A stretch of 5,293 nt of DNA from a virus (Duplodnaviria; Heunggongvirae; Uroviricota; Caudoviricetes). A program made the translations under genes and the position numbers. This document shows, piece by piece, positions 2-5,293 of this stretch; position 1 is the first letter of the stretch, and each line of letters opens with the position of its first letter. A model generated the notes under the pieces. That model was not told the DNA's origin. It searched no databases and worked only from the letters and a program-made list of their open reading frames with translations. The DNA lies in IMG/VR virus record IMGVR_UViG_2645727562_000005. One strand, given 5' to 3'.

Positions 2-418
2 GCTGTGATTCATATTGTTCCCAGAGTCGCCGGGGCCAAGTCAGGTGGCGTATTCCAGATTGTCCTGGGGGCTGCCGCCATTGCCGGATCATTCTTTACC
101 GCCGGAGCCACCCTTGCAGCATGGGGGGCAGCCATTGGGGCCGGTGGTATGACCGGCATCCTGTTTTCTCTCGGTGCCAGTATGGTGCTCGGTGGTGTGG
201 CGCAGATGCTGGCACCGAAAGCCAGAACTCCCCGTACACAGACAACGGATAACGGTAAGCAGAACACCTATTTCTCCTCACTGGATAACATGGTTGCCCA
301 GGGCAATGTTCTGCCCGTTCTGTACGGTGAAATGCGCGTGGGGTCGCGGGTGGTCTCTCAGGAGATCAGCACGGCAGACGAAGGGGATGGTGGTCAGGTT
401 GTAGTGATTGGTCGCTGA
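2..418 (+). CDS. I: Tail assembly protein I, C-terminal portion (5'-partial; start lies upstream of the window)
   Basis: The frame read from position 2 gives AVIHIVPRVAGAKSGGVFQIVLGAAAIAGSFF...EISTADEGDGGQVVVIGR, ending at TGA 416-418. From memory this matches the C-terminus of phage lambda gpI almost residue for residue, including the Gly/Ala-rich hydrophobic segment. The 'M' at position 5 in the ORF track is an internal GTG valine, not the true start. Confidence 0.9.
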   Translation, partial: AVIHIVPRVAGAKSGGVFQIVLGAAAIAGSFFTAGATLAAWGAAIGAGGMTGILFSLGASMVLGGVAQMLAPKARTPRTQTTDNGKQNTYFSSLDNMVAQGNVLPVLYGEMRVGSRVVSQEISTADEGDGGQVVVIGR

Positions 419-478: not shown

Positions 479-3400
479 ATGGGTAAAGGCAGCAGTAAGG
501 GGCATACTCCGCGCGAAGCGAAGGACAACCTGAAGTCCACGCAGTTGCTGAGTGTGATCGATGCCATCAGCGAAGGGCCGATTGAAGGTCCGGTGGATGG
601 ATTAAAAAGCGTGCTGCTGAACAGTACGCCAGTGCTGGACACTGAGGGGAATACCAACATCTCCGGCGTCACGGTGGTGTTCCGGGCAGGTGAGCAGGAG
701 CAGACACCGCCGGAGGGATTTGAATCCTCCGGCTCCGAGACGGTGTTGGGTACGGAAGTGAAATACGACACGCCGATCACCCGCGCCATCACGTCGGCAA
801 ACATCGACCGACTGCGCTTTACCTTCGGTGTGCAGGCACTGGTGGAAACCACCTCAAAGGGGGACCGGAATCCGTCGGAAGTCCGCCTGCTGGTTCAGAT
901 ACAGCGTAACGGTGGCTGGGTGACGGAAAAAGACATCACCATTAAGGGCAAAACCACCTCGCAGTATCTGGCCTCGGTGGTGGTGGATAACCTGCCGCCG
1001 CGCCCGTTTAATATCCGGATGCGCAGAATGACGCCGGACAGCACCACAGACCAGCTGCAGAACAAAACGCTCTGGTCGTCATACACCGAAATCATCGATG
1101 TGAAACAGTGCTACCCGAACACGGCACTGGTCGGCGTGCAGGTGGACTCGGAACAGTTCGGCAGCCAGCAGGTGAGCCGTAATTATCATCTTCGCGGGCG
1201 CATTCTGCAGGTGCCGTCGAACTATAACCCGCAGACGCGGCAATACAGCGGTATCTGGGACGGAACGTTAAAACCGGCATACAGCAACAACATGGCCTGG
1301 TGTCTGTGGGATATGCTGACCCATCCGCGCTACGGCATGGGGAAACGTCTTGATGCGGCGGATGTGGATAAATGGGCGCTGTATGTCATCGGCCAGTACT
1401 GCGACCAGTCAGTGCCGGACGGTTTTGGCGGCACGGAGCCGCGCATCACCTGTAATGCCTACCTGACCACGCAGCGTAAGGCGTGGGATGTGCTCAGTGA
1501 TTTCTGCTCGGCGATGCGCTGTATGCCGGTATGGAACGGGCAGACGCTGACGTTCGTGCAGGACCGACCATCAGATAAGGTGTGGACCTATAACCGCAGT
1601 AATGTGGTGATGCCGGATGATGGCGCGCCGTTCCGCTACAGCTTCAGCGCCCTGAAGGACCGCCATAATGCCGTTGAGGTGAACTGGATTGACCCGAATA
1701 ACGGCTGGGAGACGGCGACAGAGCTTGTGGAGGACACGCAGGCCATTGCCCGTTACGGTCGTAACGTCACGAAGATGGATGCCTTTGGCTGTACCAGCCG
1801 GGGGCAGGCACACCGCGCCGGGCTGTGGCTGATTAAAACAGAACTGCTGGAAACGCAGACCGTGGACTTCAGCGTGGGTGCCGAAGGGCTTCGCCATGTG
1901 CCGGGCGATGTCATTGAAATCTGTGATGATGACTATGCCGGTATCAGCACCGGCGGGCGCGTGCTGGCGGTAAACAGCCAGACCCGGACGCTGACGCTCG
2001 ACCGTGAAATCACGCTGCCATCCTCCGGTACCACGCTGATAAGCCTGGTTGACGGAAGTGGCAATCCGGTCAGCGTGGAGGTCCAGTCCGTCACCGACGG
2101 CGTGAAGGTAAAAGTGAGCCGTGTTCCTGACGGCGTTGCCGAATACAGCGTATGGGGGCTGAAGTTGCCGACGTTGCGCCAGCGCCTGTTCCGCTGCGTG
2201 AGTATCCGTGAGAACGACGACGGCACGTATGCCATTACCGCCGTGCAGCATGTACCCGAAAAAGAAGCCATCGTGGATAACGGGGCGCACTTTGACGGCG
2301 ACCAGAGCGGCACGGTGAATGGCGTCACGCCGCCCGCGGTGCAGCACCTGACTGTCGAAGTCACCGCAGACAGCGGGGAATATCAGGTGCTGGCGCGCTG
2401 GGACACGCCGAAGGTGGTGAAGGGGGTGAGCTTCCTGCTTCGCCTGACCGTGGCAGCGGACGATGGCAGTGAGCGGCTGGTCAGTACGGCAAGGACGACG
2501 GAAACCACATACCGCTTCACGCAACTGGCGCCGGGGAACTACAGGCTGACTGTCCGGGCGGTAAATGCGTGGGGACAGCAGGGCGATCCGGCATCGGTAT
2601 CGTTCCGGATTGCCGCACCGGCAGCGCCGTCTCGGATTGAGCTGACACCGGGCTATTTTCAGATAACCGCCACGCCGCATCTTGCGGTTTATGATCCGAC
2701 GGTACAATTTGAGTTCTGGTTCTCGGAAACGCGGATTACCGATATCAGGCAGGTTGAAACCACAGCCCGCTACCTTGGCACGGGGCTGTACTGGATAGCC
2801 GCCAGTATCAATATCAAACCGGGCCATGATTATTACTTTTATATCCGCAGTGTGAACACCGTTGGCAAATCGGCATTCGTGGAGGCCGTCGGTCGGGCGA
2901 GCGATGATGCGGAAGGTTACCTGGATTTTTTCAAAGGCAAGATAACCGAATCCCATCTTGGTAAAGAGCTGCTGGAAAAAGTCGACCTGACGGAGGATAA
3001 CGCCAGCAAACTGGAGCAGTTTTCGAAAGAGTGGAAGGATGCTAACGATAAGTGGAATGCCATGTGGGGCGTCAAAATTGAGCAGACCAAAGACGGCAAA
3101 CATTATGTCGCGGGTATTGGCCTCAGCATGGAGGACACGGAGGAAGGCAAACTGAGCCAGTTTCTGGTTGCCGCCAATCGTATCGCGTTTATTGACCCGG
3201 CAAACGGGAATGAAACGCCGATGTTTGTGGCGCAGGGCAACCAGATATTCATGAACGACGTGTTCCTGAAGCGCCTGACGGCCCCCACCATTACCAGCGG
3301 TGGAAATCCACCGGCATTTTCCCTGACACCGGACGGAAAGCTGACTGCTAAAAATGCGGATATCAGTGGCAGTGTGAATGCGAACTCCGGGACGCTCAAC

Positions 3401-3874
3401 AACGTCACGATTAATGAGAACTGTCAGATTAAGGGGAAACTGTCAGCCAACCAGATTGAAGGCGATATAGTCAAAACAGTGGGTAAGGCTTTTCCGCGGG
3501 ACTCCCGGGCACCGGAGCGGTGGCCATCAGGGACCATTACCGTCAGGGTTTATGACGATCAGCCGTTTGACCGGCAGATTGTTATTCCGGCGGTGGCATT
3601 CAGTGGCGCTAAGCATGAGAGAGAGCATACTGATATTTACTCCTCATGCCGTCTGATAGTGCGGAAAAACGGTGCTGAAATTTATAACCGTACCGCGCTG
3701 GATAATACGCTGATTTACAGTGGCGTTATTGATATGCCTGCCGGTCACGGTCACATAACGCTGGAGTTTTCGGTATCAGCATGGCTGGTGAATAACTGGT
3801 ATCCCACAGCAAGTATCAGCGATTTGCTGGTTGTGGTGATGAAGAAAGCCACCGCAGGCATCAGTATCAGCTGA
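479..3874 (+). CDS. J: Central tail fiber / host specificity protein J (tail tip), 1131 aa
   Basis: Uninterrupted ORF ending at TGA 3872-3874. The start is placed at ATG 479 ([38 protein letters not shown]...), which matches the lambda gpJ N-terminus from memory and has a GGAG Shine-Dalgarno at 467-470, 8 nt upstream. The GTG at 434 used in the ORF track would add 15 residues with no RBS. The protein is near-identical to lambda J over roughly the first 970 residues, then divergent at the C-terminus. Confidence 0.95.
3398..3871 (+). other. J: Divergent C-terminal receptor-binding region of J (about 158 aa)
   Basis: From about ...[30 protein letters not shown]... to the C-terminus ...[17 protein letters not shown] the protein departs from the lambda gpJ C-terminus as I recall it (…SNVTIAENCTINGTLRAEKIVGDIVKAASAAFPR…VMVIKKQALGISVV). 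Short conserved islands remain (WPSGT, FDRQIV, VDMPAG.G, KK..GIS), so it is a homologous but different receptor-binding domain. The exact boundary is approximate. Confidence 0.7.
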
Positions 3875-3893
3875 ATTTTATAACCCATATACG

Positions 3894-3917
3894 GGCGCCA
3901 GAAATGGCGCCTTTTTT
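3894..3917 (+). terminator. Rho-independent terminator downstream of J
   Basis: GGCGCC (3894-3899), loop AGAAAT, GGCGCC (3906-3911), followed directly by TTTTTT (3912-3917). It starts 20 nt after the J stop codon. Confidence 0.7.
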
Positions 3918-3941
3918 ATTGCAGAAAAGCGAGAGGTAATT

Positions 3942-4013
3942 ATGCGTAAACTTTATGCCGCCATTTTGTCCGCAGCCATTTGTCTGGCCGTATCCGGTGC
4001 GCCTGCATGGGCG
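3942..4013 (+). other. lom: Predicted Sec signal peptide of Lom (about 24 aa, cleavage after AWA)
   Basis: Positively charged N-terminus (MRK), a hydrophobic core (LYAAILSAAICLAV) and an A-x-A motif (AWA|SEHQ). The cleavage position is inferred, not computed. Confidence 0.65.
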
Positions 4014-4541
4014 TCTGAACATCAGTCCACGCTGAGCGCGGGGTATCTTCATGCCCGGACCAACGTTCCCGGCAGTGATGATCTTAACGGGATTAACGTG
4101 AAATACCGTTATGAGTTTACGGATACGCTGGGGCTGGTGACGTCATTCAGCTATGCAGGAGACAAGAATCGCCAGCTGACCCGTTACAGCGATACCCGCT
4201 GGCATGAAGATTCCGTGCGTAACCGCTGGTTCAGCGTGATGGCGGGGCCGTCTGTGCGCGTGAATGAATTGTTCAGCGCGTATGCGATGGCGGGTGTGTC
4301 TTACAGCCGTGTGTCGACTTTCTCCGGAGATTATCTGCAGGTGACCGACAACAAGGGGAAAACGCATGATGTGCTGACCGGAAGTGATGACGGTCGCCAC
4401 AGCAACACGTCTCTGGCGTGGGGAGCTGGCGTGCAGTTTAACCCGACCGAATCCGTGGCCATTGATATTGCTTATGAAGGCTCCGGCAGTGGCGACTGGC
4501 GCACTGACGGTTTCATCGTGGGTGTCGGTTATAAGTTCTGA
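3942..4541 (+). CDS. lom: Lom outer membrane protein (Ail/Lom/PagC/OmpX family 8-stranded beta-barrel), 199 aa
   Basis: ATG at 3942 with a GAGAGG Shine-Dalgarno at 3931-3936; stop TGA at 4539-4541. The translation MRKLYAAILSAAICLAVSGAPAWASEHQSTLSAGYLHA...GSGSGDWRTDGFIVGVGYKF matches lambda Lom from memory, with an N-terminal signal peptide and a C-terminal aromatic residue (…GYKF) typical of outer-membrane beta-barrels. Confidence 0.95.
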   Translation: MRKLYAAILSAAICLAVSGAPAWASEHQSTLSAGYLHARTNVPGSDDLNGINVKYRYEFTDTLGLVTSFSYAGDKNRQLTRYSDTRWHEDSVRNRWFSVMAGPSVRVNELFSAYAMAGVSYSRVSTFSGDYLQVTDNKGKTHDVLTGSDDGRHSNTSLAWGAGVQFNPTESVAIDIAYEGSGSGDWRTDGFIVGVGYKF

Positions 4542-4568
4542 TTAGCCAGGTAACACAGTGTTATGACA

Positions 4569-4594
4569 GCCCGCCGGTTCAGGCGGGCTTTTTT
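4569..4594 (+). terminator. Rho-independent terminator downstream of lom
   Basis: GCCCGCC (4569-4575), loop GGTTCA, GGCGGGC (4582-4588), followed by TTTTTT (4589-4594). It starts 28 nt after the lom stop and ends 11 nt before the stf start codon. Confidence 0.75.
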
Positions 4595-4605: not shown

Positions 4606-5293
4606 ATGGCAGTAAAGATTTCAGGTGTACTGAAAGACGGCACAGGAAAACCGGTAGAGAACTGCACCATTCAACTGAAAGCCAGACGGACCAGCAGCAC
4701 GGTGGTGGTGAACACGCTGGCCTCAGAAAATCCGGATGAAGCCGGGCGTTACAGCATGGACGTTGAGTACGGTCAGTACAGAGTCATTCTGTTGGTGGAA
4801 GGAGTCCCGCCGTCACATGCCGGGACCATCACCGTGTATGAAGATTCTCAACCCGGTACGCTGAATGATTTTCTCGGTGCCATGACGGAGGAGGACGCCC
4901 GGCCGGAGGCACTGCGCCGTTTTGAACAGATGGTGGAAGAGGTGGCGCGTCACGCTGAGGAGGCGAAGAAGAATGCCGGAGAGGCGGAGACGTCAGCGAG
5001 GAATGCCGGCATATCAGCCAGTCAGGCAGAAGAGAGCGCTGCAAATGCTGACACTTCAGCAGGGGAGGCATCGGAGTCAGCCCGGCAGGCGGCAGAAAGT
5101 GCAGCCTCAGCAAAGCAGTCAGAGGATGCGTCCTCGTCCTCGGCTTCTGCGGCCGCTCAAAAAGCCAGTGAGTCATCACAAAGTGCAGCAGAAGCTGAAT
5201 TGTCAAGAAAGACGGCAGAAAGTGCAGCCGGTAATGCAGCCAGGGATGCAACGACCGCAACAGAAAAAGCCCGGGAGTCAGCAGAAAGCGCAC
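4606..5293 (+). CDS. stf: Side tail fiber protein Stf, N-terminal portion (3'-partial; runs off the window end)
   Basis: ATG at 4606 preceded by a G-rich Shine-Dalgarno-like GTGGGG (4595-4600). I translated the frame by hand: MAVKISGVLKDGTGKPVENCTIQLKARRTSSTVVVNTLASENPDEAGRYSMDVEYGQY...TITVYEDSQPGTLNDF..., with no stop codon to the end of the window. It matches the lambda Stf (orf-401) N-terminus from memory and is followed by an Ala/Ser/Glu-rich repetitive segment. It is missing from the ORF track only because it has no stop in the window. Confidence 0.88.
   Translation, partial: MAVKISGVLKDGTGKPVENCTIQLKARRTSSTVVVNTLASENPDEAGRYSMDVEYGQYRVILLVEGVPPSHAGTITVYEDSQPGTLNDFLGAMTEEDARPEALRRFEQMVEEVARHAEEAKKNAGEAETSARNAGISASQAEESAANADTSAGEASESARQAAESAASAKQSEDASSSSASAAAQKASESSQSAAEAELSRKTAESAAGNAARDATTATEKARESAESA

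Follow-up and report, generated by a model that had tools for sequence, protein, structure and literature searches.

Organisation of the locus

The window, i.e., the whole stretch of 5,293 nucleotides that we analysed, carries a lambdoid tail module with the gene order I - J - lom - stf (Table 1). The open reading frame of J could be prolonged to a GTG at position 434 in the program-made list of reading frames, but lambda J and the J annotated in RefSeq in a prophage of Escherichia coli CD45 both start at the equivalent of the ATG at 479, and we therefore placed the start there (stop codon at 3872-3874). The CD45 copy is called gpJ in RefSeq and has the same coordinates. Six Pfam families match the protein above their curated cutoffs and in the order found in lambda (Phage-tail_3, FNIII-A_GpJ, Ig_J, Ig_J_second, Phage_Tail_Tip, and Ig_GpJ_C), so that the lambda-type TipJ series is complete: hub, FNIII-A, two Ig/FNIII domains, tail tip fibre, and C-terminal receptor-binding domain.

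The partial gene I shows 93-100% DNA identity to lambda. Relative to this phage, the divergence that begins within J continues past its end and through lom, whose product is 96% identical to that of phage 434, 87% to that of VT1-Sakai, and 46% to that of lambda. The backbone is thus better called 434/lambda-like. The visible part of Stf is 93-94% identical to the Stf of 434 and Sakai; that of lambda aligns over the first ~153 residues only, at 74%.

Table 1. Features of the window, with coordinates in nucleotides from its first letter
Feature	Position	Strand	Basis or remark
Tail tip assembly gene I, 3' part (start outside the window)	5..418	+	ORF; synteny with lambda/434/CD45
Gene J, tip attachment / central tail fibre protein	479..3874	+	ORF, 1131 aa, intact frame
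Lambda/434/21-like J body, residues 1-973	479..3398	+	4.3% DNA mismatch to lambda
Last part of the central straight fibre, residues 974-1000	3399..3478	+	A8/phi330-like, not Sakai-like
Ig-like C-terminal receptor-binding domain, residues 1001-1131, 1A2 / VT1-Sakai type	3479..3871	+	PF12421
Variable loop A, DSRAPERW, residues 1008-1015	3500..3523	+	Alignment
Variable loop B, EREHT, residues 1047-1051	3617..3631	+	Alignment
Variable loop C, VNNWYP, residues 1104-1109	3788..3805	+	Alignment
Terminator-like hairpin followed by a T run, just 3' of J	3893..3912	+	Sequence; 434 terminator annotated at the equivalent place
lom, Ail/Lom outer membrane protein, 199 aa, 434-type	3942..4541	+	PF06316, E = 8e-119
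Side tail fibre gene stf, 5' part (runs off the window)	4606..5293	+	PF08400 phage_tail_N

A lambda-type J body with a different tip

This is the J of a lambda-like E. coli prophage in which a lambda-type body carries a different and very common receptor-binding tip. The body includes the hub domains, the FNIII domains, the helical shaft, and most of the beta-prism fibre, and its DNA is 86-100% identical to lambda per 100 nt, with similar values for 434. At the protein level, J is given as 96-100% identical to lambda J up to about residue 973; in bins of 50 residues, identity is 0.88-1.00 up to residue 950 and 0.80 in residues 951-1000, and falls to 0.48, 0.40, and 0.32 in the three bins after residue 1000. 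The sequence-only reading had described a J that is lambda-like for about 970 residues, with the last ~158 residues divergent except for a few islands. This is borne out: identity to lambda is 45% over residues 974-1131 and 42% over 1005-1131, which excludes that the C-terminus is more than 90% identical to that of lambda, and the islands WPSGT, FDRQIV, DMPAG, and KK..GIS are all found in the alignment.

The transition is demonstrably sharp. There is not a single mismatch to lambda between nt 3347 and 3398, and mismatches are dense from nt 3399 on. A maximum chi-square scan of J against lambda places the best breakpoint after nt 3398, with 125 mismatches in 2920 nt (4.3%) on its left and 201 in 473 nt (42.5%) on its right (Fisher p = 6e-104); the chi-square is 684, and the maximum among 200 permutations was 14. 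As nt 3398 is the first base of codon 974, the interval 3398-3871 given earlier for the divergent block was exact, its start coinciding with the breakpoint. Relative to phage 434, the divergence runs from ~3399-3435 to ~3877-3908, i.e., to just past the stop codon of J, where the last cluster of mismatches marks the 3' edge of the cassette. A GC shift across the cassette, sought as a sign of foreign origin, is not notable (0.48-0.53, against ~0.53 upstream).

The divergence from lambda begins within the last part of the central straight fibre, before the receptor-binding domain proper. In this short segment (residues 974-1004) the protein is 94% identical to A8/phi330, 87% to Sakai, and 58% to lambda, and the DNA of nt 3389-3468 has no mismatch to phi330 and ~11 to Sakai. 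The following residues, 1001-1131, match PF12421 (Ig_GpJ_C) over its entire length (profile positions 1-135 of 135, E = 1.4e-37; 129.2 bits against a curated cutoff of 26.2). An AlphaFold2 model of the monomeric tip (pLDDT 82.8) has 9wca, 9wcb, 8xck, and 8xcj as its top Foldseek matches (TM 0.76-0.79, E = 2e-20 to 4e-18), so that, as modelled, its beta-sandwich is superposable on the solved gpJ receptor-binding domains. The divergent block is thus the receptor-binding end of J, as had been proposed from the sequence alone.

The domain has three variable loops. Loop A has the length of that of lambda and is four residues longer than in A8, phi330, and phage 21; its counterpart in phi330 is T918-Y921 (described in PMC12502783). 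Loop B corresponds to a hairpin of phi330 that, by prediction, projects into the OmpC barrel; the loop has five residues fewer here. The WPSGT motif is common to this tip and lambda, and is not found in A8 or 21.

An allele of the 1A2 / VT1-Sakai type

Comparison with J proteins of known receptor, a check that had been suggested with the original observation, assigns the tip to a defined allele. Residues 1005-1131 are 98% identical to the J of VT1-Sakai (Sp15), and by sequence the domain belongs to the 1A2 / VT1-Sakai type. It is distinct from the lambda LamB-binding allele (at the 42% identity given above), from the 434-type OmpC-binding allele (41%, with different loop lengths), and from the A8/phi330 type, to which it is 61-62% identical and which it approaches at 94% only over the preceding residues 974-1004; identity to phage 21 is 64%. 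The 1A2 sequence was read from the supplement of PMC11338833 as OCR-damaged, recoded DNA. Direct DNA comparison of the window with this printed, damaged gene gave no match, and the 1A2 DNA has therefore apparently been recoded. We thus compared 1A2 at the protein level with a frameshift-tolerant alignment and took the Sakai sequence as its clean copy: 151 of the 162 codons at the published 3' end match Sakai, and the remainder lie at OCR-damaged sites. Within the domain, the allele studied here differs from 1A2 by R1048, in loop B (K in 1A2), I1093 (M), and S1129 (T), and the fibre segment has five further changes.

This tip is among the commonest in E. coli prophages. Complete E. coli genomes contribute ~1,170 records in which the cassette is present at 95% identity or more, and the tip protein is 95-96% identical over its last 161 residues in 52 phage records. 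The matches of a protein database search were all fragments below 300 aa and hence provide no census of full-length J proteins. The J of the CD45 prophage is near-identical to the one in the window, and identical over nt 901-4000. PhiR55_1 and PhiR5_1, which are propagated on E. coli C, also carry the allele; a literature search on these two phages found no publication.

Some of these relatives raise the question of whether the gene is in use. It is possible, if rather improbable, that it lies in a decaying prophage whose J no longer serves infection, which would be compatible with an exchanged cassette. The head protease gene of the CD45 prophage is interrupted by an internal stop, in the strains E2 and TUM3755 the same cassette sits on a J pseudogene with an internal deletion, the J of VT1-Sakai is split by mutation, and many database fragments are frameshifted inside the tip. 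Against this, the window, itself a short part of the phage, shows J, lom, and as much of stf as it contains intact and free of frameshifts.

The probable receptor

The C-terminal domain of lambda gpJ binds the LamB maltoporin and sets the host range. The sequence-only reading had argued that a swapped domain implies another receptor, and had considered that this receptor could not be read from the sequence. The first point is supported by analogy and the second has to be revised, because the tip is near-identical to an allele that was tested experimentally. 1A2 is an engineered lambda gpJ chimera, joined at lambda residue 964, whose tip made lambda particles use OmpC in place of LamB (Brödel et al., Nature 2024, PMC11338833). 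In a delta-lamB delta-ompC host it gave at least 76% GFP-positive cells at the top MOI with 20 of 23 natural OmpC variants, and at most 2% with the variants G1, G2, and G40; delivery to delta-lamB cells with permissive OmpC variants was 94-99% (PMC11338833). We take G1 to be the K-12 OmpC, since its values are those of the OmpC-MG1655 panel. Wild-type MG1655 received ~5% delivery with 1A2, against 98% with wild-type lambda gpJ, and 1A2 did not enter via K-12 OmpC, K-12 LamB, or OmpF (PMC11338833). The source-data sheet of Extended Data Fig. 2c repeats the numbers of panel b (1A2 at 2% on OmpC-EDL933), in conflict with the text of that paper, with G17 in Extended Data Fig. 1, and with Extended Data Fig. 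8a (98%); we treated these values as a duplication in the sheet.

From 1A2, three domain residues apart, we infer that the J studied here uses OmpC. By this analogy, its receptor is most likely OmpC in the variants of most natural E. coli, e.g., that of EDL933, rather than K-12 OmpC or LamB. More distant relatives also use this porin: A8 and phi330 are OmpC users according to knockout, complementation, and structure. From entry titles and chain lists, which are our source for 9wca and 9wcb, the latter is the 'Open state of A8 gpJ 713 central tail fiber with OmpC G17 from E. coli EDL933' and has three OmpC chains. Phage 21 was considered as a further natural OmpC user and dropped, because the papers give LamB as its native receptor, OmpC being gained by one mutation and OmpF also only after mutation. 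Its J is 80% identical to those of the OmpC users A8 and phi330, so that receptor choice in this family is labile and relatives at 60-70% identity inspire less confidence.

Such lability bears on two alternatives to a 1A2-like use of OmpC. The first is that R1048, I1093, and S1129, with or without the A8-like end of the fibre, change the specificity, either towards another set of OmpC variants (e.g., one with K-12 OmpC) or towards an additional porin, e.g., OmpF. Single or few mutations in J add OmpC or OmpF in lambda and phage 21, R1048 sits in the counterpart of the hairpin predicted to enter the barrel, and natural alleles vary continuously in exactly the loops concerned. Yet the three substitutions (R/K, I/M, S/T) are all conservative, a large cluster of sequences (P0001, 1,940 members) already mixes these residue states, and nowhere is a functional effect of these substitutions indicated, all of which makes a shift unlikely. 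Slightly less probable still is the version in which it is the combination of an A8-like fibre end with a 1A2-like domain bearing these residues that would recognise an OmpC set other than that of 1A2, e.g., one with the K-12 variant, or a second porin. If this were true, the junction near nt 3469-3508 would be a second, finer point of exchange inside the specificity cassette and a case of natural tip reshuffling.

The second alternative, that the tip still uses LamB and the host range is unchanged despite the divergence, is very improbable. Phage 21 shows how it could be, since its domain is natively LamB-using at 48% identity to that of lambda and 64% to the one studied here, and loops A and B have lambda-like lengths and the WPSGT motif is shared with lambda. 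However, the domain is only 42% identical to that of lambda, and the 98%-identical 1A2 tip delivers poorly to the LamB-positive MG1655 and efficiently to delta-lamB cells with permissive OmpC.

Probable exchange of the tip and its significance

Alongside the demonstrated breakpoints, domain identity, fold, allele identity, and distribution, we consider it highly probable that nt 3399-3871 are a horizontally exchanged specificity cassette of the 1A2 / VT1-Sakai allele, with OmpC as the most likely receptor. The cassette comprises the last turns of the trimeric beta-prism fibre and the Ig-like receptor-binding domain of J, and was probably acquired by homologous recombination inside a conserved stretch, onto a lambda/434-like body. 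The modular boundary proposed earlier is supported by its sharp edges relative to lambda and 434 and by the presence of the same cassette, at 95-98% DNA identity, on the dissimilar J of VT1-Sakai, the body of which has 60-87% identity over most of its length and exceeds 90% in short stretches. The strains E2 and TUM3755, whose cassette is 100% identical, were tried as cases of unrelated backbones and rejected: both harbour one and the same prophage lineage, its J having lost an internal part, and hence are not independent evidence of mobility, which comes instead from the Sakai and Stx phages. A divergence in situ, driven by diversifying selection through faster point mutation and without recombination, is hardly credible even though J tips are known targets of such selection and the variable positions cluster in loops, because mismatches jump from 4% to 43% within a few bases, strands and not loops alone are replaced, synonymous sites are saturated, the cassette is far closer to that of Sakai than the body is, and 434-like sequence resumes directly after the stop codon.

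By analogy with the solved lambda-LamB and A8-OmpC complexes, the tip, in three copies, would reach with its bottom loops into the trimeric porin from the extracellular side, and binding would spread the three domains apart and trigger the opening of the tail tip.

Ever since lambda h434, host-range hybrids have been explained in textbooks by the exchange of J tips among lambdoid phages. The tip swap is thus correct but ordinary, an instance of textbook lambdoid mosaicism with an allele that was already characterised, and given how common this allele is, it carries little weight as a discovery. Its use lies in annotation: by analogy with 1A2, a lambda-like J with this tip can be annotated as binding OmpC and as probably unable to plate on K-12. 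Such a reading bears both on host-range predictions for Stx-type and effector-carrying lambdoid prophages and on the choice of tips when delivery particles are engineered.

Comparison with known systems

The closest counterpart is 1A2, in which a lambda-type body meets the same tip allele, with the junction inside the same conserved stretch (at lambda residue 964, against codon 974 here). It is engineered and its body is that of lambda, whereas the J described here is natural and its body is ~96% identical to lambda DNA; furthermore, the last fibre turns have Q983, I984, K985, and I997, which are A8-like and unlike 1A2. Among natural phages, the same tip allele is carried by VT1-Sakai (Sp15) and by the long-tailed Stx2a, PPompW, and JLK-2012 phages (95-98% DNA identity over nt 3500-3900), on J bodies that are mostly 60-87% identical to the window. 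The J of VT1-Sakai is annotated as truncated by mutation and the one studied here is intact. For long-tailed Stx phages bearing this tip, a literature search for direct receptor studies turned up phi330 alone, a phage of the A8 type.

A8 and phi330 share the fold and the domain family, and the end of their fibre is identical (exact for phi330 over nt 3389-3468), but the domain itself is only 61-62% identical, with loop A four residues shorter and loop B five longer, and they accept K-12 OmpC, which 1A2 does not. Phage 21 has a J of the same family and uses LamB natively. The lambda gpJ-LamB complex (8xcj/8xck; Ge and Wang 2024) has the same architecture, Ig-like fold, and bottom loops (TM 0.78-0.79), and presumably the same trigger mechanism, with a domain of low identity and LamB as the receptor. 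Finally, phage 434 resembles the window in the body of J, lom, and stf, but its tip is another allele, and the lambda h434 hybrid provides the classical precedent in which a swap of the J tip moves the receptor from LamB to OmpC.

Mosaic structure of the J gene

In the window lie distal tail genes of a phage or prophage that resembles lambda. An open frame of 510 aa lies antisense to J (minus strand, 1571-3103), and is presumably a by-product of J codon usage.

Features of the distal tail region
Feature	Coordinates	Length
Gene I, 3' part	5-418	
J (tip attachment protein)	479-3874	1131 aa
Terminator-like hairpin	3893-3912	
lom	3942-4541	199 aa
Second hairpin	4568-4589	
stf, 5' part	from 4606	

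We aligned the window with the GenBank records of lambda, 434, VT1-Sakai, 21, and phi330. Up to residue 950, the 50-residue bins of J are mostly 96-100% identical to lambda J (minimum 88%), and the last three are 48, 40, and 32% identical. The DNA shows zero mismatches to lambda at 3347-3398, and from 3399 on about every second base differs. A maximum chi-square scan set the breakpoint after nt 3398, with 4.3% mismatch to the left vs 42.5% to the right (Fisher p = 6e-104); the observed chi-square was 684, and no permutation exceeded 14. The sequence-only reading had placed the divergent end at 3398-3871, and both limits are correct according to the scan and the alignment to lambda; the alignment with lambda J also bears out the ~158 divergent C-terminal residues and all four conserved islands that it had listed.

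Relative to 434, divergence starts at ~3399-3435 and the sequence is 434-like again at ~3877-3908, directly past the J stop codon. VT1-Sakai J carries this tip too (95-98% DNA identity), although its body mostly shares only 60-87% identity with the window and exceeds 90% only in short stretches. The divergent end of J is an exchangeable cassette, and the modular recombination boundary proposed earlier is supported by the breakpoint and by the presence of the tip on VT1-Sakai J. The cassette shows no shift in GC content. At a finer scale, nt 3389-3468 have no mismatch to the phi330/A8-type sequence and ~11 to Sakai, and Sakai-type sequence begins only at ~3509. This mosaic in 3389-3508 suggests that there is another exchange point where the fibre meets the receptor-binding domain.

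The stretch without homology to lambda continues past the end of J and through lom (nt 3399 to ~4450), because the lom of the window is of the 434 type: its product is 96% identical to 434 Lom vs 46% to lambda Lom (206 aa). The N-terminus of Stf (4606-5293) is 93-94% identical to those of 434 and Sakai, and its alignment to lambda is limited to the first ~153 residues (74%). The rest of the visible stf encodes an Ala/Ser/Glu-rich low-complexity stretch (…AEEAKKNAGEAETSARNAG…).

Residues 1001-1131 give a full-length match to Pfam family PF12421 ([quoted passage not shown]). In the terms of Ge and Wang (PMC11101478), the divergent block therefore comprises the final turns of the central straight fibre (974-1000) and the Ig-like receptor-binding domain, including the bottom loops. 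For residues 961-1131, an AlphaFold2 model (pLDDT 82.8) has its best solved-structure matches, with TM scores of 0.76-0.79, in the A8 gpJ fibre, closed (9wca) or open with OmpC G17 of EDL933 (9wcb, three OmpC chains), and in the lambda fibre, closed (8xck) or with LamB (8xcj). The J of the window belongs to both the lambda TipJ family and the PF12421 family. The Pfam match, the breakpoint, and the lambda-like body support the earlier view that a receptor-binding domain was swapped on a conserved scaffold.

Receptor of the exchanged tip

Over residues 1005-1131, the window is 98% identical to VT1-Sakai J, 64% to phage 21, 62% to phi330, 61% to A8, 42% to lambda, and 41% to 434. Its tip is the 1A2/Sakai allele, and not that of lambda, 434, or A8/phi330. 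1A2 is an engineered lambda gpJ chimera (Brödel et al., PMC11338833) with its junction in the same conserved stretch as the natural junction of the window. The supplement prints its 3' end as DNA that is recoded and OCR-damaged, and the translation is that of the VT1-Sakai tip (...HEKEHT...GHGHMTLEF...AGITIS): 151 of 162 Sakai codons are matched in a frameshift-tolerant alignment, and the remainder fall at damaged sites.

In a delta-lamB delta-ompC host with plasmid-borne OmpC, 1A2 gave 76-99% GFP-positive cells at the top MOI with 20 of 23 OmpC variants, including G17 (EDL933), and at most 2% with G1, G2, and G40 (PMC11338833). We take G1 to be the K-12 OmpC because its numbers are the same as in the OmpC-MG1655 panel. 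On wild-type MG1655, where LamB, OmpF, and K-12 OmpC are all present, 1A2 reached ~5% vs 98% for wild-type lambda gpJ (PMC11338833). In the source data of Extended Data Fig. 2 of that study (supplementary file 10), the 1A2 and A8 numbers of panel C (OmpC-EDL933) are those of panel B (OmpC-MG1655). This sheet contradicts the text, Extended Data Fig. 1 (G17), and Extended Data Fig. 8a; since these three agree with each other, it looks like a duplicated spreadsheet block.

The use of OmpC by 1A2 supports the claim of a non-LamB receptor. The claim that the sequence does not reveal the receptor has to be amended: the tip is nearly identical to a tested allele, so its receptor is most probably OmpC. 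We built this on the 98%-identical 1A2, and not on relatives at 60-70%, because receptor choice in the J family is labile. Phage 21 (OL657228, 1007-4489) has a tip 80% identical to those of the OmpC binders A8 and phi330, yet its reported native receptor is LamB; a single J mutation leads to OmpC, and OmpF came later. Sequence similarity of 60-80% is no predictor of the porin in this family.

The window differs from 1A2 by R1048K, I1093M, and S1129T in the domain (window residue first), and the fibre segment holds five further differences. R1048 sits in loop B (1047-1051, EREHT), and the corresponding phi330 hairpin lies inside the OmpC barrel in an AlphaFold3 model (PMC12502783). Relative to phi330/A8, loop B lacks five residues and loop A (1008-1015, DSRAPERW) has four extra, so docking must differ in detail from that in 9wcb. 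The three substitutions, together with the A8-like end of the fibre, could alter which OmpC variants are recognised.

Distribution and relation to known systems

The tip is among the commonest J tips of E. coli. The phage collection holds 52 records of this type at 95-99% protein identity, including long-tailed Stx2a phages, PPompW phages, JLK-2012, and PhiR55_1, and its nearest relative among phage records is VT1-Sakai. Among records of complete E. coli genomes, 188 carry the 476-nt cassette at ≥99% identity and 981 carry it at 95-99%. VT1-Sakai J (AP000400, 2098-5570) consists of two ORFs, split "by a mutation", and several database fragments (P0034, P0036, P0040, P0100) have frameshifts inside the tip. 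E. coli E2 and TUM3755 (1540-3976) carry a 100%-identical cassette on a J that lacks ~1 kb internally and has a pseudogene annotation; both represent the same prophage lineage in decayed form.

Prophages of E. coli CD45 and ECO2947 are 98.7% identical to the entire window. In the CD45 prophage (NZ_CP182220, 1-29222), nleA, a type III effector gene, adjoins the tail fibre genes, with nleA and a DUF1076 gene immediately downstream of them, and the S49 head protease gene has an internal stop. This prophage is an effector-carrying lambdoid that may be defective. Its copy is identical to the window at nt 901-4000 and its gpJ is in the RefSeq annotation, so that a near-identical J had already been recorded. 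The tip allele is widespread and has already been used and tested, and lambda h434 is the classical product of such a tip exchange (PMC11101478). This kind of exchange, the allele, and a near-identical J were all known already.
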